A stretch of 64,000 bases of DNA. Source: Patescibacteria group bacterium (GTDB lineage Bacteria; Patescibacteriota; Patescibacteriia; SG8-24). The notes below the pieces were generated by a model. The model did no database searches, was not told the origin of the DNA, and saw only the letters and a list, made by a program, of their open reading frames with translations. The stretch is taken from contig JBAYFM010000008.1 in the NCBI GenBank assembly GCA_041667185.1, positions 1,714 through 65,713 of the forward strand, written 5' to 3'. Shown in pieces: positions 2,350 through 61,723 of this stretch (position 1 is its first letter; the number at the start of each line of letters is the position of its first letter). The translations under genes were made by a program, and so were the position numbers.

Positions 2350-2502
2350 GCGTTACATAGCTGATCTCCACCCCGCAAAGCGGCTGCGCCGCTCGCGGGA
2401 TGTCGATGTTTTATGAGATATATTGCGGATCTCCACCCCGCAAAGCGGCTGCGCCGCTCACGGGGTTCCGGTATCTTATGCGTTACATAGCGGATCTCCA
2501 CA
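2350..2502 (+). repeat. tandem triplicated ~65-bp unit covering the 5' end of the EndoQ-like gene
   Basis: 37-nt core GATCTCCACCCCGCAAAGCGGCTGCGCCGCTCGCGGG at 2363-2399 and 2428-2464 (36/37 identical; palindromic GCGGCTGCGCCGC). A third degenerate copy at 2493 is part of the CDS (codons for DLHIHS). GCGTTACATAGC[T/G]GATCTCCAC occurs at 2350 and 2480. Period 65 bp; the 28-nt intervening segments are about 64% identical to each other. Confidence 0.7.
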
Positions 2503-3785
2503 TTCATTCGAAATATTCCCGCGCTTGCTCGCGGAATTTGACGTTCTCGAATTTGGCTGCCTGGGGTTCGGCCAAAGGCATCGATATCCTGGCCACCGCC
2601 GATTTCACGCATCCGAAATGGCTCGCGGAGATCGAGGAAAAATTGGAACCGGCCGAGGAAGGCTTGTTCAGGATTAAGGCTAAATATGCGGCGGAAGACG
2701 GCGATTCGGCGTATGAGGCCGCTCCGCGCGCCTTGGCCGGCCGGCCGGTCAGGTTTTTCCTGTCGACCGAGGTCGCCTGCATCTATAAACAGGGCGGCCG
2801 GACGCGACGGCTGCACCTGGTTCTGTGTTGTCCGGATCTGGCCGCGGTCAAAAAACTGAACGCCAAGCTGGAAGCGCTGGAATGCAATCTCAGGTCCGAC
2901 GGCCGTCCGATCCTGGGACTCTCGGCCAAGGAACTTCTGAAAATTTTATTGGAAGCCGACCCGCGGAGCCTGATGATCCCGGCGCATGCCTGGACGCCAT
3001 GGTTCTCGGTCTTCGGTTCGCAGTCCGGGTTCGATTCGCTCGAGGAATGTTTCGAAGAACTGACGCCGGAGATCCACGCCGTCGAGACCGGCCTGTCGTC
3101 CGATCCGCCGATGAATTGGCGGCTCTCGAAATTGGATGGCGTCATGCTGGTCTCCAATTCCGACGCCCACGGTTTCAAGAATCTGGGTCGCGAGGCCAAT
3201 GTCTTTGACTTGTCCGCGCCGAGCTATCGGGCGATCGCCGATATTTTTCGCCAGCGCGACCGCAAGAAATTCCTCCACACCATCGAGTTCTTTCCAGAAG
3301 AGGGGAAATATCATGTCGACGGCCATCGGGCCTGCGATTTTTTCTGCGAGCCGGCGGAAACGCGGAAGCGCAAGGGTCTGTGTCCGAAGTGCGGTAAGGA
3401 ATTGACGCGCGGCGTTCTGGGCCGGGTCGAAGTCCTGGCCGACCGTCCGGACGGCGTCAGGCCGGCATCCGCCGTTGATTTTCGGCGCATCGTGCCGCTC
3501 GAAGAAGTCGTCGCCAGCGTGCTGGACAAAGGCAAGGGGACCAAAGCCGTGATCGCGCTGTGGCGCAAACTCGTCTCCGAGATCGGACCGGAATTCGACG
3601 TGTTGCTTGATGCTGATCTTAAGACCATCGAACGGGTCGGCGGCGCCAGAGTGGCCGAGGCCATGCAGCGAATGCGCCGGGGCGAGCTGGTCATCCGTCC
3701 GGGTTACGACGGCGTCTTCGGCGAGGTCAGAATCTTCGAGGATCAGAAGACCGGGTCGAACCAGCAGAGCAGGTTGTTGATCTGA
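2478..3785 (+). CDS. PHP-domain nuclease, endonuclease Q (EndoQ)-like, with C-terminal zinc ribbon
   Basis: N-terminal MRYIADLHIHSKYSRACS is a PHP-domain metal-binding motif, as in EndoQ. CPKCGKELTRG zinc ribbon near the C-terminus. Start chosen at M27 of ORF 2400-3785 (ATG 2478). Confidence 0.6.
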   Translation: MRYIADLHIHSKYSRACSRNLTFSNLAAWGSAKGIDILATADFTHPKWLAEIEEKLEPAEEGLFRIKAKYAAEDGDSAYEAAPRALAGRPVRFFLSTEVACIYKQGGRTRRLHLVLCCPDLAAVKKLNAKLEALECNLRSDGRPILGLSAKELLKILLEADPRSLMIPAHAWTPWFSVFGSQSGFDSLEECFEELTPEIHAVETGLSSDPPMNWRLSKLDGVMLVSNSDAHGFKNLGREANVFDLSAPSYRAIADIFRQRDRKKFLHTIEFFPEEGKYHVDGHRACDFFCEPAETRKRKGLCPKCGKELTRGVLGRVEVLADRPDGVRPASAVDFRRIVPLEEVVASVLDKGKGTKAVIALWRKLVSEIGPEFDVLLDADLKTIERVGGARVAEAMQRMRRGELVIRPGYDGVFGEVRIFEDQKTGSNQQSRLLI

Positions 3786-3804
3786 CGATCCGGACAAACG
3801 AAAA

Positions 3805-3842
3805 CGTCCGCATCTTTTTGTGCGGACGCCTTCGTATTTTTG
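3805..3842 (+). terminator. rho-independent terminator after EndoQ-like gene
   Basis: CGTCCGCATCTTTTTGTGCGGACG hairpin followed by CCTTCGTATTTTT. Confidence 0.6.
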
Positions 3843-4096
3843 AGAAAAGAGCAGCGTATTTTTGCTCTTGGCCGTCCTCCTCATTTAACCGCCCGATTTT
3901 GGCGGCTTCATGGCGGCCCGTCTATTCTCAATGATTTTGGAGCCCGAGGGGTCCTCCTCTCCGCCTTCGGGTTTATTCCAGCCTTGCGGCCAGGGCTCTA
4001 CTTTCAAGATAGCACGGGTTCTCATACCCGGCGCAAGTACCCTGTCAAGCCCCAGTTAAAATTTGTCGACCGGGTGTCGTAAAATCGGATGTCAAC

Positions 4097-4347: not shown

Positions 4348-4746
4348 GGAACAACTCCCGGGTTGAAGGAACAATAGATTCATCTTCGGCTTCCTGACGG
4401 CAAAAGTCAAAATTTGCCAAGTTAAGGCGGATACGCCATGGACAGCACTGTAAAATAAACTGGCGGGTGGTGAAAAAACGTCCAGTGCCGGGTTGACAAA
4501 TCGGCCTCGTTGTGTTATATTTCTTCGTTACATCGCGCGTCATTCCAGCAGAGGAACTCAGACCAGATACGGACGGGAGGTGTTCTATGGGTGGAGGTTG
4601 AGAAATAAAAACGACAAGTTCTTTTCCCAGGCATCTTGTTTCCACTCACAGCGGGTGGCCGAAAACGAAAAGGGCGCGTCCTTTCCGTAAGGCCGCCTCT
4701 TTTTTTACCAAAAAACCGGCCAGTGGCCGGTCTTTTGATATCGAAG

Positions 4747-5487: not shown

Positions 5488-5501
5488 AGTCAGCGCGGCT
5501 G

Positions 5502-6887
5502 TTAGAGGCTCTTGGTGAAGTCGAGGAGCAGATTGCGCTCGGGCGGCGGCAAGGAGGAAGCTTTTTTCTCGATGAAATCTTTGATGTCCTGGGCGGTGAT
5601 GAGCTCCTTGTTTATGAGTTCGATGGCGACGGCCGCGAAGTTCTCGGCGCGGTTGCTCGTCAGGTTCGGGGTTGCGGCGTAAACCCGGTCAAGATCAACC
5701 GCGGATCCGGGTTGGAAGCGGTTGGTGAATTCCAGCCATTTAGCATTTTTGCTTTTTATGAGGCGGCCGTGGAATTCGCGGATATCTTTATTGACCTTGG
5801 CGTGTCGGGTCTCGAAAGCGTTCATTTTTTCGAGCGTACGGACGACCGCGTGGTCATCGGGGTAGCGCTTCGTTCCCTCGACCAGCAGGTCGTCGGAATA
5901 TTCCTGGTCGAATTCCACGGCGTTGCCGTAGTCGATGATGAAGACTTTGGGTCGTTCGGACGCGGAGCCGGCCGGCGGCTGTTCGATCCCGCCCCGGATT
6001 AGGAAATTGCGGTGGTGGGCGTCGCGGTAGGCGAGACCGTTCTGATGGAACAGGTCCATGGTGTTCTTGATCTGCGTGATGATCGCCGAGTCGACTCGGA
6101 AGCCGGATTCGCCCAGGAAACGGAAGATCTTCTCCGAGTTCTCGCTGAAGACCTTGGTCTCTTCGAAGTCGCGCGCGGCCGGATCTTTGGCCTTACCGCC
6201 GGGTGCGTTGAATTGTAGGATCTCGCTCACGGTCTGCATCAGGTCTTCGAAGCGCATGGAGTCGACATCGGCTGCGAGGTGGATGGTCTTCGGATGGCGC
6301 CTGATGATCTCTTTATACAGTCCGATCGCGAGATCGTCGCCTTTGATCAGGTCCATCATGAACAGTTCGACGCGATCCGTCGGCAGATCCTCCTTGGTCA
6401 GGTTGCGCAGGCGGTCCCGGACCGATTTTTTGGTGATCGGCAGGTCGCGGTATAAGTAAGCGCGCGGCACGCTGGCATAGTCTGGATCGTCAGCCTTCAG
6501 TTCGGCGATCTCACGGGCGCGGCACTGAAGGTCGTACTCGCGCTTGCCGACGCCGCCATGGTAGATCTTGATGATCTTGGTGGCCTGGTCCGGTCCCAGG
6601 ATGATGTCGCAAGCCTTGAGTTCTTCGAAGATCTCCGTAGGCAGCTCGTTTTCGTCGAATTTCAGGATGACGCCATTATTGCCCTCGCCAAGTTTGACCA
6701 GGTGCAGTTCGAGCAGGTCTTCGAGCGCCGCGTCGATCCGTCTTTCTTTTTCCGGCGTAGCTTCGGTCTCCAGACCGGTTTTATCGGCGGTTTCGGAGGC
6801 AGCTTCCGGCATGGCCGGACACTCGTTCTCGTGTCTGCCGACGCCGCCGCAATAACGGCATTTTTCCATATATTTTTTATTCAGCAC
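5502..6887 (-). CDS. protein-kinase-like fold protein with N-terminal zinc finger (hypothetical)
   Basis: CRYCGGVGRHENEC zinc knuckle at the N-terminus. C-terminal half has a catalytic-loop-like AYRDAHHRNFLIRG and a DFG-like VFIIDYGNA, consistent with a eukaryotic-like/RIO/Kdo-type kinase fold. Confidence 0.55.
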   Translation of the reverse strand: MLNKKYMEKCRYCGGVGRHENECPAMPEAASETADKTGLETEATPEKERRIDAALEDLLELHLVKLGEGNNGVILKFDENELPTEIFEELKACDIILGPDQATKIIKIYHGGVGKREYDLQCRAREIAELKADDPDYASVPRAYLYRDLPITKKSVRDRLRNLTKEDLPTDRVELFMMDLIKGDDLAIGLYKEIIRRHPKTIHLAADVDSMRFEDLMQTVSEILQFNAPGGKAKDPAARDFEETKVFSENSEKIFRFLGESGFRVDSAIITQIKNTMDLFHQNGLAYRDAHHRNFLIRGGIEQPPAGSASERPKVFIIDYGNAVEFDQEYSDDLLVEGTKRYPDDHAVVRTLEKMNAFETRHAKVNKDIREFHGRLIKSKNAKWLEFTNRFQPGSAVDLDRVYAATPNLTSNRAENFAAVAIELINKELITAQDIKDFIEKKASSLPPPERNLLLDFTKSL

Positions 6888-7492: not shown

Positions 7493-7987
7493 ATGATGAA
7501 GTGCATTATCAAGATCATGAATCCAAAGTCCAAAAAACTGACCTTCGATCTCCGCTCGACCTATCTCGCGGTCATCAGGAACAGCGTCGGAACCAAAATG
7601 TTCCGCAATTCCTGTGGACGCGCAGCCGGCCGAGCTGTTGATCTGACCCGGGGCGGGCGCTTGTCCTGCGCATTTTTCGTCACTTCGGTCCTGCGTATTT
7701 TCGGATTGATCAAAGAACAGCACACGACCGTTGGTGGCGCGGTCCGGGACCTGGAACAGAGCGGCTGGCGGCCAGTGAAGACGGCGCGGCCGGGCGACAT
7801 CCTGGTCTGGGAAGCGGTCGTCGGCCAGGACGGCAATCATGAACATATCGGATTTTTGATCGCGCCCGGCGTCGCGGTCAGCAACAGCACTCGCGCGCGC
7901 CTGCCGGCCGAACATCATTGGACCTACGGCGTCCGCGCCGGCAAGCCGGTCCGGCGCGTCATGACGATCTACCGCTGGAACTTCTAG
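7493..7987 (+). CDS. hypothetical protein (possible NlpC/P60- or CHAP-like Cys/His fold)
   Basis: Start MMKCIIKIMNPKSKK directly after the tRNA. Contains a ...NSCGRAAGRA... Cys and a later NHEHIGFL His arrangement. The antisense ORF 7376-8005 overlaps the tRNA and is rejected. Confidence 0.4.
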   Translation: MMKCIIKIMNPKSKKLTFDLRSTYLAVIRNSVGTKMFRNSCGRAAGRAVDLTRGGRLSCAFFVTSVLRIFGLIKEQHTTVGGAVRDLEQSGWRPVKTARPGDILVWEAVVGQDGNHEHIGFLIAPGVAVSNSTRARLPAEHHWTYGVRAGKPVRRVMTIYRWNF

Positions 7988-8002
7988 ACCGAGATCAAAA
8001 AA

Positions 8003-8036
8003 CACGCCCGATCAGGCGTGTTTTTGGGGACTGTCC
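8003..8036. terminator. bidirectional rho-independent terminator
   Basis: AAAAAACACGCCCGATCAGGCGTGTTTTT: hairpin flanked by an A-run and a T-run. Serves both the + gene ending at 7987 and the - gene ending at 8094. Confidence 0.65.
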
Positions 8037-8093
8037 CGGGGTGGAAATGGCGGCGCTAAAATAAGCCATTTTTTTGTTGATGTGCGTCCCCGC

Positions 8094-8846
8094 CTAGCCG
8101 AATTCCGTGCGGCGCGGCGACTGTTCGATGATTTTCAGAGCCTCTTCGGCCGTGTCCACCAGCCGATAGAGTTTTTTGTCGCTCGCCGATACGGCCTGAT
8201 AGCGCTCCTGCACCATCTCGTCGACCCACTTTAGGAACGGCGACCAGAATTCTTTGCCCACCAGGATGATCGGGATCTTGGCCGAGATCTTTTTGGTCTG
8301 GATCAGGGTGATAATCTCGGTCAGTTCGTCGAACGTGCCCCAGCCGCCGGGCATGTAGACGTAGGCCTGGGCGGAGTAGGCGAGCATGACTTTGCGGACG
8401 AAGAAATAGTGGAAGCTGACGCCTTTTTCGACGAACGGGTTGGCCCGCTGCTCGAACGGCAGCTTGATGTTGAGTCCGAAAGAGTCGCCCGGACCGCCGC
8501 CTTCGCTCGCGCCCATGTTGGCCGCTTCCATGATGCCCGGACCGCCGCCCGTGATGACGCTGTAGCCTTTGTCAGCCAGGAGCCGCCCGAGTTTGCGAGC
8601 CTCCTGATACCAGCGGTTCTTCTTCGGGAAGCGCGCTGAACCGAAAATCGTCACGCTTTTTTTGACGTCGGCGAGGAAATTCCAGCCGTCGACGAATTCG
8701 GCCATGATGCGCAACACGCGCCAGTGGAAGGAATTGCGGAAGTCAGCCTCGTGTTCGAAGACCGGCAGCTCGGAAGCCGGGACGTTGAGATCCTGGGCCC
8801 GAGTCAGCGTCTTGGGCAGTTTCTTTTTGGAGGCCTTTTTTTTCAT
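8094..8846 (-). CDS. LOG family protein (cytokinin riboside 5'-monophosphate phosphoribohydrolase-like, TIGR00730)
   Basis: GGGPGIMEAANMGA and PGGWGTFDELTE motifs. Confidence 0.85.
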   Translation of the reverse strand: MKKKASKKKLPKTLTRAQDLNVPASELPVFEHEADFRNSFHWRVLRIMAEFVDGWNFLADVKKSVTIFGSARFPKKNRWYQEARKLGRLLADKGYSVITGGGPGIMEAANMGASEGGGPGDSFGLNIKLPFEQRANPFVEKGVSFHYFFVRKVMLAYSAQAYVYMPGGWGTFDELTEIITLIQTKKISAKIPIILVGKEFWSPFLKWVDEMVQERYQAVSASDKKLYRLVDTAEEALKIIEQSPRRTEFG

Positions 8847-36521: not shown

Positions 36522-36678
36522 AGGCGTGGGAGTGTTTACCTATATTAGAGCGAATGGCGATTTGAGGCAATATGGCGGAAATAAGCCCGAAACGGCTGCC
36601 CAAAAAGACGCAAACGCCGCGTCCTCGTCTGGGGACTTCGCGGTCCGGCAGCCCCGTATTTTTAGGCGTTAAAGATCA

Positions 36679-36707
36679 TTGACAAAATAGCGTTTTTGCG
36701 CTAGGTT
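36679..36707 (+). promoter_or_regulatory. putative sigma70-type promoter of paralog A (duplicated at 37931-37959)
   Basis: TTGACA (36679-36684), 17-nt spacer, TAGGTT (36702-36707). The same TTGACAAAAT context is duplicated upstream of paralog B. Confidence 0.4.
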
Positions 36708-36795
36708 TTCAGCACAAGTGTTCTTTTTATGGCAGGCCTCAAGTATGCCTAATGACAGGCGTACAGGGGGTAAGCCAAAAACAAGGAGTCAGGTC

Positions 36796-37809
36796 ATGGT
36801 CCAGAAGAAGAGTGAGTTCGTCAGTGCCGCCGGCACCACCTTTGAGATCATCCAGAAGCTCTCCGGAGCCGTCCGCGACCTCGGCGGGTCGGATGATCAC
36901 CTCCGTCGGATCCTCTCCGACGAGGAGCTTCGTCGCGAGATCGCCAAGCTGCTCGTTGCGGGTACTTGTCGCAAAACCCTTGGTGACATGCTCAAGGCCT
37001 GCGGCAATGACTGGGCGAACTCCGCCATTACCGAGGAACATTTCCCGGTGAAGCCCGAACTCTTCACTGTGGCCGGCACCAAGGTCTTTCACTTCAACCG
37101 AATCATGACCACGAAGGAGGTCGAGGCGGCCATCAGGGCCAAGGGGTACGAGCCAGCCTCGATCGAGACTCTCCTCGCCTACGGCGTGGAGAATCCCAGA
37201 GAGCAGCGGAAGCACCCCATCGTCGCCCTCGGCTCCTCCTGGGTGCATCCCGGCGGCAGCCGTGAGGTCCCTTGTCTGTGCGAGTACGACCGCAAGCGGC
37301 AACTTCGCCTGTGGTATGCCAACCCCAAGAACTATTGGTGCGAGGACTACTGTTTCCTCGCCTCCCGCAAGTCCAGCATGTTGTTCGTCGCGGACCCCCA
37401 GCTCAATGTCTTCGATCAGATGATCGAAGACTGCAAGTTTGTTGATGTCGACCACGACATCAACGAGCAGAACTTTCCACTCGCCGGCCCGGTCGTAGAC
37501 GTGTCAGACATGCTGCTGGTCAGCCAGAAAGATTTTGGCAGCCAGGGCAAAACCTTCGCTCAGATTAAGACCTTTATCGACAGCGAGGGTTATCGTTGCG
37601 CGACTCTAGCCGAGCTGATTGACTACGCTAAGGCGAAGTGGGACGACAAGGATGCAGTCATCGCTCTCGGCTCCTTCTGGGTGGATCAGCATGGTCATCG
37701 TGTCGTACCGCGGCTGTATAGGGGTGTTCATGGTCCCGGGCTAGATCTGCTGGATCGTCTTGATGACTTGTCGGGTATTTCATACTCGTTCCTCGTCGTC
37801 CGCAAGTAA
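36796..37809 (+). CDS. hypothetical protein, paralog A (337 aa; two copies of an unknown ~90-aa domain)
   Basis: MVQKKSEFVSAAGTTFEIIQKLSGAVRDLGGSDDHLRRILSDEELRREIA N-terminus, about 85% identical to paralog B. Internal repeats (...GYEPASIETLLAYG...VALGSSWVHPGGSREVP / ...GYRCATLAELIDYAKAKW...IALGSFWVDQHGHRVVP). Ends FLVVRK. SD AAGGAG 8 nt upstream. Confidence 0.6.
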   Translation: MVQKKSEFVSAAGTTFEIIQKLSGAVRDLGGSDDHLRRILSDEELRREIAKLLVAGTCRKTLGDMLKACGNDWANSAITEEHFPVKPELFTVAGTKVFHFNRIMTTKEVEAAIRAKGYEPASIETLLAYGVENPREQRKHPIVALGSSWVHPGGSREVPCLCEYDRKRQLRLWYANPKNYWCEDYCFLASRKSSMLFVADPQLNVFDQMIEDCKFVDVDHDINEQNFPLAGPVVDVSDMLLVSQKDFGSQGKTFAQIKTFIDSEGYRCATLAELIDYAKAKWDDKDAVIALGSFWVDQHGHRVVPRLYRGVHGPGLDLLDRLDDLSGISYSFLVVRK

Positions 37810-38047
37810 CTCTCGAATCCTTTCGGCCCATACCACGTCGTGGTGCGGGCCGATTTTTTTATACTGATGTTTGCGGCTAAGACGACAACCGGCGGCTACG
37901 GCTGCGGACAGTAGAGTCTGGAAAAGATCATTGACAAAATCGCCTATTTATGCGATTGTTTCGGCACAAGTGTTCTTTTCATGACAGTCCCTAGGTTCGT
38001 CTGATGTCAGACGTATAAGGGGTAAACCATAAACAAGGAGTCAGGTC

Positions 38048-38611
38048 ATGGTCCAGAAGAAGAGCGAGTCCGTCTTTGCCGTCGGCACCACCTTTGAGAT
38101 CATCGTGAAGCTCTCCGGAGCCGTCCGCGACCTCGGCGGGTCGGATGATCACCTCCGCCGGATCCTCTCCGATGAGAAGCTCCGTCGCGAGATCGCTGGG
38201 CTGCTGGTCGGTAAGTCCCTCGCCGAGATGATCGCCAAGTGCAAGTTCAGCTACGTTAACCCCGTCATCGACGAGCAGAACCTTCTGCTCGCCGGACCGG
38301 TCGCGGATATATCGGACATGCTGGTTGTCAGCCAGAAGGATCTTGGCGGTCAGGATATGACCACTGCCGCAGTCGAGGCTGCCATTGACTGTATGGGTTA
38401 CCGTCCTGCGTCCCTCGTCGAACAGCTCGTCTATGCCAAGGCGAAGTGGAACGGTAAGGACCACGTGAACGCTTGGGTGGAATCGCATAACCAACGCTAC
38501 ATCTCGAGTCTGTCCGGGGATGGCGCCGGCGACCGCGAGTTGACCTTGTTCCGAATCGTATCTGGGTTCTGCTGGTTCGGTGACATTCGTTTTCTCGTCG
38601 TTCGCAAGTAA
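38048..38611 (+). CDS. hypothetical protein, paralog B (187 aa; one copy of the unknown domain)
   Basis: Same N-terminal 55 aa and C-terminal FLVVRK as paralog A. Conserved leader AAACAAGGAGTCAGGTCATG. Hairpin terminator follows. Confidence 0.6.
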   Translation: MVQKKSESVFAVGTTFEIIVKLSGAVRDLGGSDDHLRRILSDEKLRREIAGLLVGKSLAEMIAKCKFSYVNPVIDEQNLLLAGPVADISDMLVVSQKDLGGQDMTTAAVEAAIDCMGYRPASLVEQLVYAKAKWNGKDHVNAWVESHNQRYISSLSGDGAGDRELTLFRIVSGFCWFGDIRFLVVRK

Positions 38612-38783
38612 TCCAGAGCCTCTCGGCCCGCGTCATGTCATGGCGCGGGCTTTTTTGTTGCGATGTTGTTATGGCCGCATCTTTAGTTGGTCGGACTAGG
38701 ATGCGATCGGTATTTCAGAACAGGATTCGTCGCCAGCATATTTTTAAAGCCGAGAAATTGATTAAGCTTACGGGCCTGGGAGG

Positions 38784-38812
38784 TTGACAAAAAGGCTAAT
38801 TTGAGCTATTAT
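38784..38812 (+). promoter_or_regulatory. sigma70-type promoter of rnpB
   Basis: TTGACA (38784-38789), 17-nt spacer, TATTAT (38807-38812). TSS predicted about 7 nt downstream. Confidence 0.6.
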
Positions 38813-38818
38813 CCAGCG

Positions 38819-39371
38819 GTCAGGTCGACCGGATGATCGCCCCGCAGTACTGCGGGGAGGAAAGTCTGAACACCTCCCGCATTCATGCGGGAAAAGGGAC
38901 AATCGCTAACGGCGACCGGGAGCAAGCGTCGGAATTTCTTTTCAATAGCCAATTGGCGAAAGAAGTTTCGCGTCCAAGCCCAGGGAGAGTGCAACAGAAA
39001 ATACACCGCCTGCGCCCCGTGATGACGAGCGAAAGCGAGTCATTTTACGGGGCTAGAAGCGTCACCGGCGCAAGCTAGTGCCGACAAGGCAAGGTTGAAA
39101 TCGTGAGGTAAGAGCTCACGCGGGACTGCGGGGCGTGAGCCGTGAAAGCGGCTTTTACGCCCCCACGGACAAGAACCTTCGGGTTCCAATATCTGGCCGC
39201 GCGAGCGGCGCCGTGGAAAACCCTGTCCGGTGCAAGAGCAAGTTTGGTAGCTCGCAGGCCGCAGTCGCAAGGTTGCGGCCAAGGCCGCTGGCAACAGCGG
39301 TCGCAGAGAGATGATCATCGCCTCGCGGTCAAACGCGGGGTACAAAATTCGGCTTACAGGCCGGCCTGACA
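38819..39371 (+). ncRNA. rnpB: RNase P RNA (bacterial type A)
   Basis: GGAGGAAAGTC (P4 5' strand), GTTGAAATCGTGAGGTAAGAGCTCACGC (GGUAAGAGCGCACC-like P10-12 region), and ACAAAATTCGGCTTACAGG (P4 3' strand ACAGAAnnCGGCUUA). 5'/3' ends can pair as P1 (GTCAGG...CCTGAC). Confidence 0.8.
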
Positions 39372-39377
39372 AGAAAA

Positions 39378-39432: not shown

Positions 39433-41055
39433 TCAGCCGCGGAGTCCGGCAAAGCGCCGAAGGAGCGGATCGGGATCCCAGGCCTGACGGTTCAGGGCGG
39501 TCTCGATCATCTCCTCGCACTCCCAGCTTTCGCCTTTGGACCACAGGTCGCGCAGGAACCGGCTGGCGTCCGAAGACCTGAACCAGGTCTGGCCGTAGCG
39601 CAGTTCGAGATGCTCCCGGAGCTGGGCGGCCGCGAGTCGGGCCCGGAGGCGGTCAGCCGAGCCGAAGCCGCGGTCCAGATCCAGGAGATAGAGCTCTCCG
39701 TCATGGTTGAGGCCGGTCTGGGAGGACAACAGGTGATGATAGTTGAACTGATTGCGCCAGTTGTCGAGCGGACTCTTCTGCAGCTCCATCGCATAGGCGA
39801 ATTGGCCGATGTGACGGCGCAGCTGATAGAGGTCCGCCAGTTTCCGACGGCCCGCCACTTCGGCCGCCGCGGCCGCGTCCAGTCCCAGCACCGCCGCGAG
39901 CCACTCTTCATTCTGGAGCAGAGACTCCAGCAGGAAGGCGCAGGTCTCGGCGAGAGCGCGGGAGCGTCCGAGGTTGCGGAATTCGAAGGGCAGCCGCGGA
40001 TCCATGGAAGCGCTGAACCAGGCCTGTCCCGCCTCGTGGAGGAGGGCGGCATAGTCTGCCGCTCCGCCGCGAGGTTTCAGGAACAGGCGGATCTCGGCTG
40101 GCGCGTTGCACGCCACGCAGAGGATGCCGTCATCGCTGGCCGGACCAGTCTCGAGTTCCAGCTTGATGTCGGATCCGTCGAGATCCAGGCCGAGGCCGCG
40201 GAAGGTCTCCCGCGCGGCCGCGAGCAGCCGTCGCGCCGGGAAGATCCTGTCGAACTCCCGGTTCGCGAGCAGATAGGACTCGTGAGCCCGCGACAGTCCC
40301 GGGAATTTCCGTCCCGAGCGCTGCCGCCGGACGAGCCGGCTCATGCCTTCGTCGTAGACGTCCTGGGTCTTTTCGGACACGGTTTTCGCGATCGCGAGCA
40401 GATCGTCGTAGCTGACGCGCTTGCGTCCGCTATAGAACTGCAGCTCGGTCGCGAAACCATGGCGGGCGAGCGTCCGGTGGAAACGGTTGTTCCGGTCGAC
40501 GAGCAGCGGGTTAAGCTTTTCTTCGACGCAACGGACGTAAGCCGACCAGAGCTGTTCGCGCTTGTCGGCGCTGCGTTCCTGGCTCAGCCGGCGCTGGAGA
40601 TCGGGGAGCGGCGTTTTCGCGCCGTTCACGTTGATCATCGCGCCGCGGATGGCCGTGGCGGCCGCGTCGTCGCAGGGAGCCAGATGTCGGCCGATGAGTC
40701 CCTCGAGCAGGAACCAGGCCAGCCGGTCGAAGCGCTCCGGAAATTTCTTGGCCGGCATGCGGCTGAACGACTCGGAAGCTTCCCGCGTCTGTCTGATGTT
40801 GCGCGGGGCGAACAGGTTCGCGTACGCCTGAAAGATGGCAACGGTCTGCTGTTCAGTTTTCCGTCCGGAGCCGATGGCCAGGTTCTCGAGACCGAGGTCA
40901 TAGAGATAGTTGGCGCAGTCTTCCAGGGTCTTCTCGTGTTGCGACGGTTCGTGCGGCTGGAAAGCCAGGCTGCCGCGTTTGGCGGGTTTGCTCTTGGAAT
41001 TGCGTCCGGCGGCGTTTTGCCGGCGGCTCGCGTAGTACTTGCCGAAACTGATCAT
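39433..41055 (-). CDS. M3 (oligoendopeptidase F)-like protein with degenerate zinc motif (hypothetical)
   Basis: Overall length and composition resemble PepF-type M3B peptidases, but the expected HExxH reads LHEAGQAWF (second His replaced by Gln). The antisense + ORF 39421-41079 is rejected on composition. Confidence 0.4.
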   Translation of the reverse strand: MISFGKYYASRRQNAAGRNSKSKPAKRGSLAFQPHEPSQHEKTLEDCANYLYDLGLENLAIGSGRKTEQQTVAIFQAYANLFAPRNIRQTREASESFSRMPAKKFPERFDRLAWFLLEGLIGRHLAPCDDAAATAIRGAMINVNGAKTPLPDLQRRLSQERSADKREQLWSAYVRCVEEKLNPLLVDRNNRFHRTLARHGFATELQFYSGRKRVSYDDLLAIAKTVSEKTQDVYDEGMSRLVRRQRSGRKFPGLSRAHESYLLANREFDRIFPARRLLAAARETFRGLGLDLDGSDIKLELETGPASDDGILCVACNAPAEIRLFLKPRGGAADYAALLHEAGQAWFSASMDPRLPFEFRNLGRSRALAETCAFLLESLLQNEEWLAAVLGLDAAAAAEVAGRRKLADLYQLRRHIGQFAYAMELQKSPLDNWRNQFNYHHLLSSQTGLNHDGELYLLDLDRGFGSADRLRARLAAAQLREHLELRYGQTWFRSSDASRFLRDLWSKGESWECEEMIETALNRQAWDPDPLLRRFAGLRG

Positions 41056-61436: not shown

Positions 61437-61610
61437 GGTGGGCGGCAGAGGAGTCGAACCTCTGACCTTCACAATGTCAATGTGACGCTCTAACGCCCAG
61501 TCCGGTCGTCTTGCGACCGGACACAAGAAATGCGCGGCGGCGGCCGCCACATCTGGCGTCAAGCCCGCCCTGGTCCCCGCGTTCGCGCGGGGCGGGCTTA
61601 ACCAACTGAG
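61437..61610 (-). pseudogene. partial tRNA-Val copy (D-loop to CCA) carrying a 105-nt family-1 element in the D-loop; no 5' acceptor strand
   Basis: In tRNA orientation: CTCAGTTGGTTA, family-1 element (plus-strand 61494-61598; AGCCCGCCCCGCGCGAACGCGGGGACCAGGGCGGGCT TGACGCCAGATGTGGCGGCCGCCGCCGCG...GTCCGGTCGCAAGACGACCGGAC), then TTAGAGCGTCACATTGACATTGTGAAGGTCAGAGGTTCGACTCCTCTGCCGCCCACCA, identical to the intact gene. Confidence 0.8.
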
Positions 61611-61646: not shown

Positions 61647-61723
61647 TGGTGGGCGGCAGAGGAGTCGAACCTCTGACCTTCACAATGTCAATGTGACGCT
61701 CTAACCAACTGAGCTAGCCGCCC
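61647..61723 (-). tRNA. tRNA-Val (anticodon GAC)
   Basis: Reverse complement GGGCGGC-UA-GCUC-AGUUGGUUA-GAGC-G-UCACA-UUGACAU-UGUGA-AGGUC-AGAGG-UUCGACU-CCUCU-GCCGCCC-A-CCA. Confidence 0.9.

Follow-up and report, generated by a model that had tools for sequence, protein, structure and literature searches.

Two tandem genes on the forward strand of a 64,000-nucleotide stretch of Patescibacteria DNA (contig JBAYFM010000008.1; the whole stretch is called the window hereafter), designated A and B, belong to a large protein family which is the variable, or target, protein of the diversity-generating retroelements (DGRs) of Patescibacteria. It is likely that A and B are tandem paralogs of such DGR targets whose mutator has gone, that they are probably frozen, and that each has kept a conserved hairpin in its leader RNA. 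The preliminary description of this DNA, made from the sequence alone, recognised no known family in the pair. This has to be corrected, as the genes have homologs among the variable proteins of DGRs, which are systems of a known kind. The two genes, their products and the segments that correspond to the variable region are as follows.

36796-37809, + strand: gene A, 337 amino acids (aa), ATG at 36796 (MFA6603911.1, WCT10_03670)
Product of gene A: three-helix N-terminal domain (aa 1-57), module 1 (aa ~60-193) and module 2 (aa ~206-337)
37234-37374, + strand: variable-region equivalent of module 1, internal to gene A, ending ...CGCAAGTCC, aligned to the template-paired part of homologs
37672-37806, + strand: variable-region equivalent of module 2, at the C-terminus of A, ending CGCAAGTAA, from the same homolog alignment
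38048-38611, + strand: gene B, 187 aa (MFA6603912.1, WCT10_03675)
Product of gene B: three-helix N-terminal domain and one module of the module-2 type
38468-38608, + strand: variable-region equivalent of gene B

Assignment of the family comes from the surroundings of its other members. Related loci, 49 in number, were taken from species-representative genomes, the selection being made with the peptide pattern PIVALGS[VSC]W. At 15 loci the final ~135 bp of the family gene recur, gap-free, ~350 bp downstream with 80-90% identity. The downstream copy has an adenine at 282 of the 320 positions at which the two copies differ over the 15 loci, and in most pairs it has one at all such positions. Thirteen of the 49 loci have the order target, template repeat, Avd (minus strand) and reverse transcriptase (~330 aa), and variable-region/template-repeat pairs are present in L004, L006, L010, L014-L017, L019, L021, L025, L031, L032 and L038. 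Searched with Pfam, the open reading frames (ORFs) of the cassettes matched RVT_1 (96.8 and 83.1 bits) and bAvd (50.1 bits). A comparison of two relatives, P0013 and P0018, showed 99% identity over the 153 residues preceding the variable region and 60% inside it, the variable positions carrying the residues expected of randomised AAY codons. A template repeat, mismatches at adenines, an Avd and a reverse transcriptase together form the signature of a DGR, and we conclude that the family is its target protein. The relatives of the pair are thus hypermutated by DGRs, which bears out the suggestion in the preliminary description of a family undergoing diversification.

The course of events that we propose is the following. 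In the relatives, the reverse transcriptase and bAvd would copy the adjacent template repeat into the variable region, randomising the positions templated by adenine, and the randomised region presumably alters what the target protein binds. The last ~45 residues of each module of A and B would be the counterpart of this hypervariable region. Their binding surfaces would now be frozen, diverging by ordinary mutation, duplication, fusion and recombination, while each gene would form its own transcription unit, opening with a 55-nucleotide (nt) hairpin just before the ribosome-binding site.

A second element accompanies the cassettes. In all 13 DGR-linked loci, the 70 nt that follow the target gene's stop codon contain 2 to 6 YTNGG repeats, against a background of 0.54 per 70 nt. 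The repeats (CTTGG, CTCGG) stand ~8-10 nt apart and fold into long imperfect hairpins immediately 3' of the stop codon (L004 5580-5650, L006 5607-5680, L014 5601-5670, L017 5592-5660, L031 5207-5280, and others). As far as we have checked, such an array after variable regions is not yet described; it may be what the DGR clade of Patescibacteria uses to recognise its targets. About 30 of the 49 loci have no adjacent reverse transcriptase or cassette, and many of those keep the YTNGG array.

Several single loci deserve mention. L010 has two tandem targets (2475-3065 and about 3450-4050), each with its own leader hairpin, and one template (4464-4600) serves both, with 19 of 20 and 17 of 18 mismatches located at adenines for the two targets; this pair is the DGR-linked counterpart of the tandem arrangement of A and B. 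Cassette loss does occur, as seen from two decayed cassettes: L007 keeps a template-like remnant (5933-6079) in which 13 of 30 mismatches are not at adenines, with no reverse transcriptase or Avd, and L029 keeps a 68-aa fragment of reverse transcriptase (5494-5697). Genes of mobile elements were also met. L004 has a tyrosine integrase (7647-8534) behind its reverse transcriptase, the target is fused to a PF00589 integrase domain in P0020, and P0005, a B-like protein, is encoded between an rve transposase and a Y1 transposase (L053, 34-1113 and 1981-2409).

The family is very large. Relatives of the pair numbered 29 with phmmer and at least 340 in a profile search. When 1.84 billion cluster representatives were searched exhaustively with a profile, 8,864 representatives of 50%-identity clusters came out at E<=1e-3, and 2,297 at E<=1e-30; single-protein matches to family relatives reach E 1e-64. 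A typical member has ~200 aa, and two or three modules per protein are frequent in the best matches. Nothing significant was found for A and B in Pfam, PHROGs, NCBIfam or PADLOC, no PDB chain matched them by sequence, and none of 132 scanned family members had a Pfam domain. The proteins of both genes, like those of the relatives, are small, with neither signal peptide nor transmembrane segment. With a hidden Markov model of the family, residues 1-196 of A score 222.6 bits, residues 206-337 of A 75 bits and B 98 bits, the lowest of the 132; scores elsewhere have a median of 250 bits and a minimum of 169.5. Thousands of relatives, some with DGR cassettes beside them, thus came out of the search for homologs and neighbourhoods, and the lineage-specific character first proposed for the family stands, since its named matches are Patescibacteria save for a few contigs labelled otherwise. 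Among the latter are L042, a 2.6-Mb contig labelled Acidobacteriaceae, L040 (Dehalococcoidia), and L010, L012, L013, L024 and others, labelled Gammaproteobacteria. These are either mislabelled bins or a genuine occurrence outside the lineage.

As to structure, residues 1-193 of A were modelled by AlphaFold2 with a pLDDT of 93.6; in this model the N-terminal domain has three helices and the module after it is of alpha/beta type. The best PDB matches of this model found by Foldseek are uniformly C-type lectin domains, at weak values (E 0.02-0.1, TM ~0.5), and a library of viral structures returned an equally weak lectin-like picture for the model of module 1. The B model has a pLDDT of 90.3 and a complete sheet, and Foldseek gave no lectin-like match for it. 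The module, first described as uncharacterised, is linked to a system of a characterised kind, that of DGR targets, although its role can hardly be called mundane.

No retroelement was found at the A/B locus itself. No template repeat for 37180-37400, 37620-37870 or 38400-38670 is present anywhere in the 64-kb window, and 13 foreign template repeats align with its variable-region equivalents at only 56-73% identity over partial lengths, which is chance level. Neither gene was revealed in the window by tblastn, for which two reverse transcriptases linked to the family and one Avd served as queries (best E 0.12-0.45), and the 10 kb past its right end hold housekeeping genes only, with no reverse transcriptase or Avd. 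The YTNGG array is absent after A (37810-37880) and after B (38612-38680), where one repeat each was counted. Since the retroelement is missing from this segment of the genome, A and B are orphans. They are moreover too divergent to be served together: the three variable-region equivalents are 55-65% identical, hence no single template would suit all of them, and scaffold positions that are identical to the template in relatives are altered in module 2 of A and in B. Each of the two proteins is the single member of its 90% cluster and was found unchanged on several assemblies; no sequence variant of either exists in a collection of 15 billion proteins, which holds one sequence of each. We conclude that A and B are probably orphan former targets, now frozen.

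A past activity of the mutator may have left a trace in base composition. Adenine content is 0.13-0.16 in the variable-region equivalents (0.13 in module 2), compared with 0.20-0.24 elsewhere, and NNT codons make up 38% of the module 2 equivalent, compared with 14-19% elsewhere. We read this as a faint footprint of past adenine mutagenesis. The same figures bear on a different history, in which A and B would come from a branch that was never targeted, the family being a general small binding protein of which retroelements recruited some members only. The majority of sampled loci without adjacent cassette fits such a history, as do the two-module relatives P0032 and P0052, which have no adjacent reverse transcriptase (P0052 stands among housekeeping genes), and the B-like P0005, which has no cassette. 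We nevertheless regard it as very improbable. Low adenine content with an NNT excess in module 2 is what adenine mutagenesis of an AAY-rich template is expected to leave; residues 1-196 of A are canonical by their score; the C-terminal ...RK-stop motif, where template homology ends in relatives, is conserved at the DNA level; P0005 itself keeps the YTNGG array; and the decayed cassettes of L007 and L029 show that such loss does take place.

Our reading of A and B as orphan, frozen targets has to be weighed against a number of points. The part of the genome in view amounts to the 64 kb of the window and ~10 kb more, and an active template may lie elsewhere. A pattern scan of metagenomes for a template of B, in which every non-A base was also allowed to be A, gave no match, the source contig included, and is uninformative. 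The sequence CGCAAGT(AA), which in relatives closes the segment common to gene and template, is kept at all three module ends of A and B, besides the GC-rich hairpins that stand after both genes. The sample of loci is biased toward canonical members by the pattern used to collect it. That the YTNGG array takes part in recognising targets is our inference, not an established fact. With regard to the fold, a C-type lectin domain is plausible for module 1, given the weak matches of its model, and unproven for the module-2/B type, B having had no match. Finally, a switch in the leader, by which a U/C-rich stretch 5' of the hairpin would sequester the Shine-Dalgarno sequence, was suggested by minimum-free-energy (MFE) folds of A, L014 and L004 and had to be rejected, the duplex energies of 5' and 3' flanks in 24 loci being like those of shuffles (mean z 0.08).

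Some of these points would be accounted for if A, B or both were active remote targets of a DGR cassette situated elsewhere in the genome. Remote, non-adjacent targets are documented for other DGRs (PMC5758913), and this too speaks against our reading. In a metagenome-assembled genome (MAG) of Falkowbacteria, orphan copies on other contigs match the template of that genome, with 17 of 26 and 20 of 27 mismatches at adenines, and the many family loci that have an array and no adjacent reverse transcriptase, like the CGCAAGT at every module end of A and B, fit active remote targets as well. However, three variable-region equivalents too unlike for one template, the altered scaffold positions in module 2 of A and in B, the missing YTNGG array and the lack of any variant among 15 billion proteins are not expected of active targets. 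Moreover, DGRs of the candidate phyla radiation (CPR) tend toward a single target, the remote targets being known only in another lineage (PMC5758913). Remote activity thus appears unlikely to us, and we keep the interpretation of A and B as former targets in what follows.

Turning to the pair itself, both ORFs are as first described and are paralogs that match by BLASTP, as expected of the tandem duplication that had been proposed. Residues 1-192 of A align with residues 1-187 of B at 43% identity (E 4e-39), and residues 208-337 of A with residues 60-187 of B at 47% identity (E 2e-30). It follows from these two alignments that A consists of the N-terminal domain and two modules of ~130 aa, longer than the ~90 aa of the first description, and B of the N-terminal domain and one module; the latter is closer to module 2 of A. 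Identity is unevenly distributed along the DNA. It reaches 79% over promoter and leader (-125 to -1) and 89% over codons 1-55, drops to 55-65% in the modules, and is 58% further upstream of the promoters. Over the first 55 codons, 48 amino acids are the same (87%, a little short of the near identity previously reported), and the codon differences comprise 7 synonymous and 7 non-synonymous ones. Judging from these values, the 5' cassette common to A and B (promoter, leader and N-terminus) would clearly be younger than the remaining gene parts, and its higher identity points to recombination or gene conversion between the 5' parts of A and B.

Gene A itself seems to have arisen when two neighbouring genes fused, a stop codon and the 5' cassette between them having been lost. 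Its residues 1-196 align end to end with single-module proteins of 196 aa, e.g. P0002 (60% identity), the C-terminus of the P0002 type, ...RKSSS, matching ...RKSS at residues 192-195 of A. Beyond residue 196, A continues into a module of the B/P0005 type which has no N-terminal domain of its own. A mirror case was found in the MAG CAYISA01, where an exact repeat of 495 bp on two contigs (L038 5056-5550 and L041 5125-5619) places the same module, variable region and downstream element behind two different N-termini, with a DGR cassette at L038 only; it is due either to recent recombination or to an artefact of the assembly. Roux et al. (PMC8144416) have proposed that DGR targets recombine in modular fashion.

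The signals for expression of the two genes, from promoter to terminator, are listed next.

36679-36684, + strand: -35 box of gene A, TTGACA, conserved with B, 17-nt spacer to the -10
36702-36707, + strand: candidate -10 of gene A, TAGGTT, weak
36728-36782, + strand: leader hairpin, copy A (covariance model R1 42.9 bits, E 1e-9; MFE fold z -3.15)
36783-36788, + strand: Shine-Dalgarno of gene A, AAGGAG, 7 nt before the ATG
37824-37860, + strand: terminator-like GC-rich hairpin (37824-37852) and T run of gene A, seen by sequence and fold
37931-37936, + strand: -35 box of gene B, TTGACA, conserved with A
37954-37959, + strand: candidate -10 of gene B, GATTGT, weak
37980-38034, + strand: leader hairpin, copy B (model R1 37.3 bits, E 6e-8; fold z -0.56)
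38035-38040, + strand: Shine-Dalgarno of gene B, AAGGAG
38625-38657, + strand: intrinsic-terminator-like hairpin of 12 pairs and T run of gene B, from the consensus scan

A complete expression unit for each copy, as had been described, is therefore present, with a -35 box, leader, Shine-Dalgarno sequence and terminator-like hairpin at each gene. The promoters stand in part: TTGACA is perfect at both, but the -10 boxes are weak and neither promoter was called by a consensus scan, that of A being missed because of its weak -10; the good expression first thought probable is thus not supported. It is similar for the terminators, that of B being called by the scan, whereas the hairpin of A, visible and folding, fails the spacing rule of the scan and was not called. 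Both leaders, of ~80 nt, end with AAACAAGGAGTCAGGTCATG.

The hairpin in these leaders is a conserved, covarying RNA motif exclusive to the DGR target family. Its outer helix, GGC/GCC, is followed by an internal loop rich in purines, then by a helix GCCU/GGGG and an apical hairpin that varies. Compensatory changes between the leaders of A and B, in the arms GCCT...AGGC and CGTCTGA...TCAGACG, had already been noticed; they are confirmed and now form part of a motif conserved across many loci, which recurs 5' of family genes in many lineages. In a MAFFT alignment of 24 instances, RNAalifold found double-sided changes in 10 of 12 pairs. With the outer helix added, 85% of the cells of this alignment pair, against 30-51% with slid partners, and double-sided changes amount to 73, against 23 in shuffles. 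An alignment of 33 instances, which was fitted to the covariance model and hence leans toward the structure, gives 93% of pairing cells and 94 double-sided changes against 31 in shuffles.

Specificity was apparent in every search with model R1. In 480 kb of sequence it matched upstream of family genes only, instances outside the training set included, and L053 as well; in the window it found the two leaders and nothing else. A scan of metagenomes with a sequence pattern gave 31 sites, of which 7 pass the model. A family gene follows at all 6 model-positive sites that have enough downstream sequence, and at none of 24 model-negative sites. The leaders had no match in Rfam 15, either at the gathering threshold or at E<=10, nearby matches being terminator look-alikes. 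In the searchable literature, RNA motifs tied to reverse transcriptases are described, and none upstream of DGR targets. The leader RNA is hence undescribed as far as we have checked, and possibly a new cis-RNA.

As to its role, the 3' end of the hairpin lies 5-15 nt before the Shine-Dalgarno sequence and no T run follows, which means that it is no attenuator; neither a terminator nor an alternative structure sequestering the Shine-Dalgarno sequence was detected in the leader. It is absent from the DGR-linked loci L016, L031 and L032, and is therefore dispensable for retrohoming. We infer a family-specific post-transcriptional element, to which a protein or ligand may bind, or which may stabilise the messenger. 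Going further, one may imagine a new class of cis-regulatory RNA for DGR target genes that senses a protein or small ligand and so controls whether the hypervariable binding proteins are made, with A and B as "frozen winners" left after the mutator and shuffled further by fusion of modules and exchange of the 5' cassette, but this is a speculation which we ourselves rather doubt.

The surroundings of the hairpin are less regular. A loose U/C-rich box (GUGUUCUUUU, GUACCUUGA, GUACUUUA) lies directly 5' of it, at 36715-36730 and 37967-37982 in the window, and about half of the related loci have it at the corresponding place. A strict GTRYHTT box was considered as a defining part of the motif and dropped, as it occurs in 8 of 31 loci only (background 2.3%). 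Some other loci have instead an extra upstream hairpin, GGCTGG-GAAA-CCAGCC, or a GCTGCGGCTA box.

The weaker score of the B leader raises the question of whether B, and perhaps module 2 of A too, is degenerating into a pseudogene, its reading frame being intact only for the time being. Two outer-helix pairs are broken in this leader, which has GAC/ACC in place of GGC/GCC, and its score and fold stability are lower than those of A. In the protein, B has the lowest family score, an in-frame deletion of 4 residues in the nearly invariant (P)IVALGS strand, and no lectin-like match of its model. On the other hand, the ORF of 187 codons, the -35 box, the Shine-Dalgarno sequence, the start codon and a strong terminator are all intact, and the AlphaFold2 model is confident, with its sheet complete. 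In P0005, the closest relative, the strand of this module type is complete, and the apical hairpin of the B leader has been kept by compensatory changes, which argues for selection after the duplication. We thus judge decay of B to be quite unlikely. What the preliminary description had left open about B as a decaying pseudogene is answered in part only: the score, the deletion and the weaker helix are of the kind expected, while the frame, the signals and the model are not.

Among known systems, the closest are the Patescibacteria/CPR DGR targets, i. e. clade 2 of Roux et al. 2021 (PMC8144416) and the "CPR set", UVR1-6, of Wu et al. 2018 (PMC5758913), to which A and B are homologous. CPR DGR targets typically lack recognisable domains and are probably new variants of the C-type lectin fold (PMC8144416, PMC5758913). 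A and B share with them the host lineage, a small size, the absence of known domains and a C-terminal segment that corresponds to the variable region. They differ from the DGR-linked ones by having no cassette in the window and 10 kb to its right, by the missing YTNGG array, by their tandem arrangement with one two-module protein, and by their diverged scaffold residues. The solved DGR proteins with a C-type lectin fold, Mtd of a Bordetella phage, TvpA of Treponema, TaqVP of Thermus and the archaeal AvpA (PMC2408619, PMC6328139, PMC5006420), resemble the modules of A in that the variable region forms the C-terminal end of a compact alpha/beta domain; they are absent, however, from the top 50 structural matches of the module 1 model. 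The seven DGR targets of Treponema denticola (PMC5758913, PMC4891356) are, like A and B, target-type genes away from a reverse transcriptase, but they differ from a known template at adenines only, whereas the three segments of A and B cannot share one template. Lastly, the leader recalls the autoregulatory leaders of ribosomal-protein genes and 5' stabilising stem-loops, being a covarying stem-loop between promoter and Shine-Dalgarno sequence that is tied to one gene family; unlike those, it matches no Rfam family, and no alternative structure with a terminator or a sequestered Shine-Dalgarno sequence was detected.

These results allow a very large family without annotation, with its 8,864 clusters at 50% identity and no Pfam model, to be labelled by function as the targets of DGRs, which are unusually common in Patescibacteria. 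The many copies free of a retroelement, this pair included, raise the question of the fate of hypervariable binding proteins once diversification stops, and the leader motif could give a handle on expression control in organisms that cannot be cultivated.

Three other features of the window were recorded. Directly downstream of gene B, at 38821-39372 (+ strand), lies an RNase P RNA of bacterial class A (148 bits), which spans 552 nt for a model of 367 positions and so has large insertions; its promoter, at 38784-38812, is near-consensus (TTGACA-17-TATTAT). Between this RNA and the tryptophanyl-tRNA synthetase gene, an ORF of 540 aa on the minus strand (39433-41055), a gene in the source annotation, had no match in Pfam or PADLOC. 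A tRNA match of 60 nt at 61439-61498 (minus strand), with 30.7 bits for a gathering score of 29, adjoins a normal tRNA (61650-61723) and may be a truncated or unusual tRNA.

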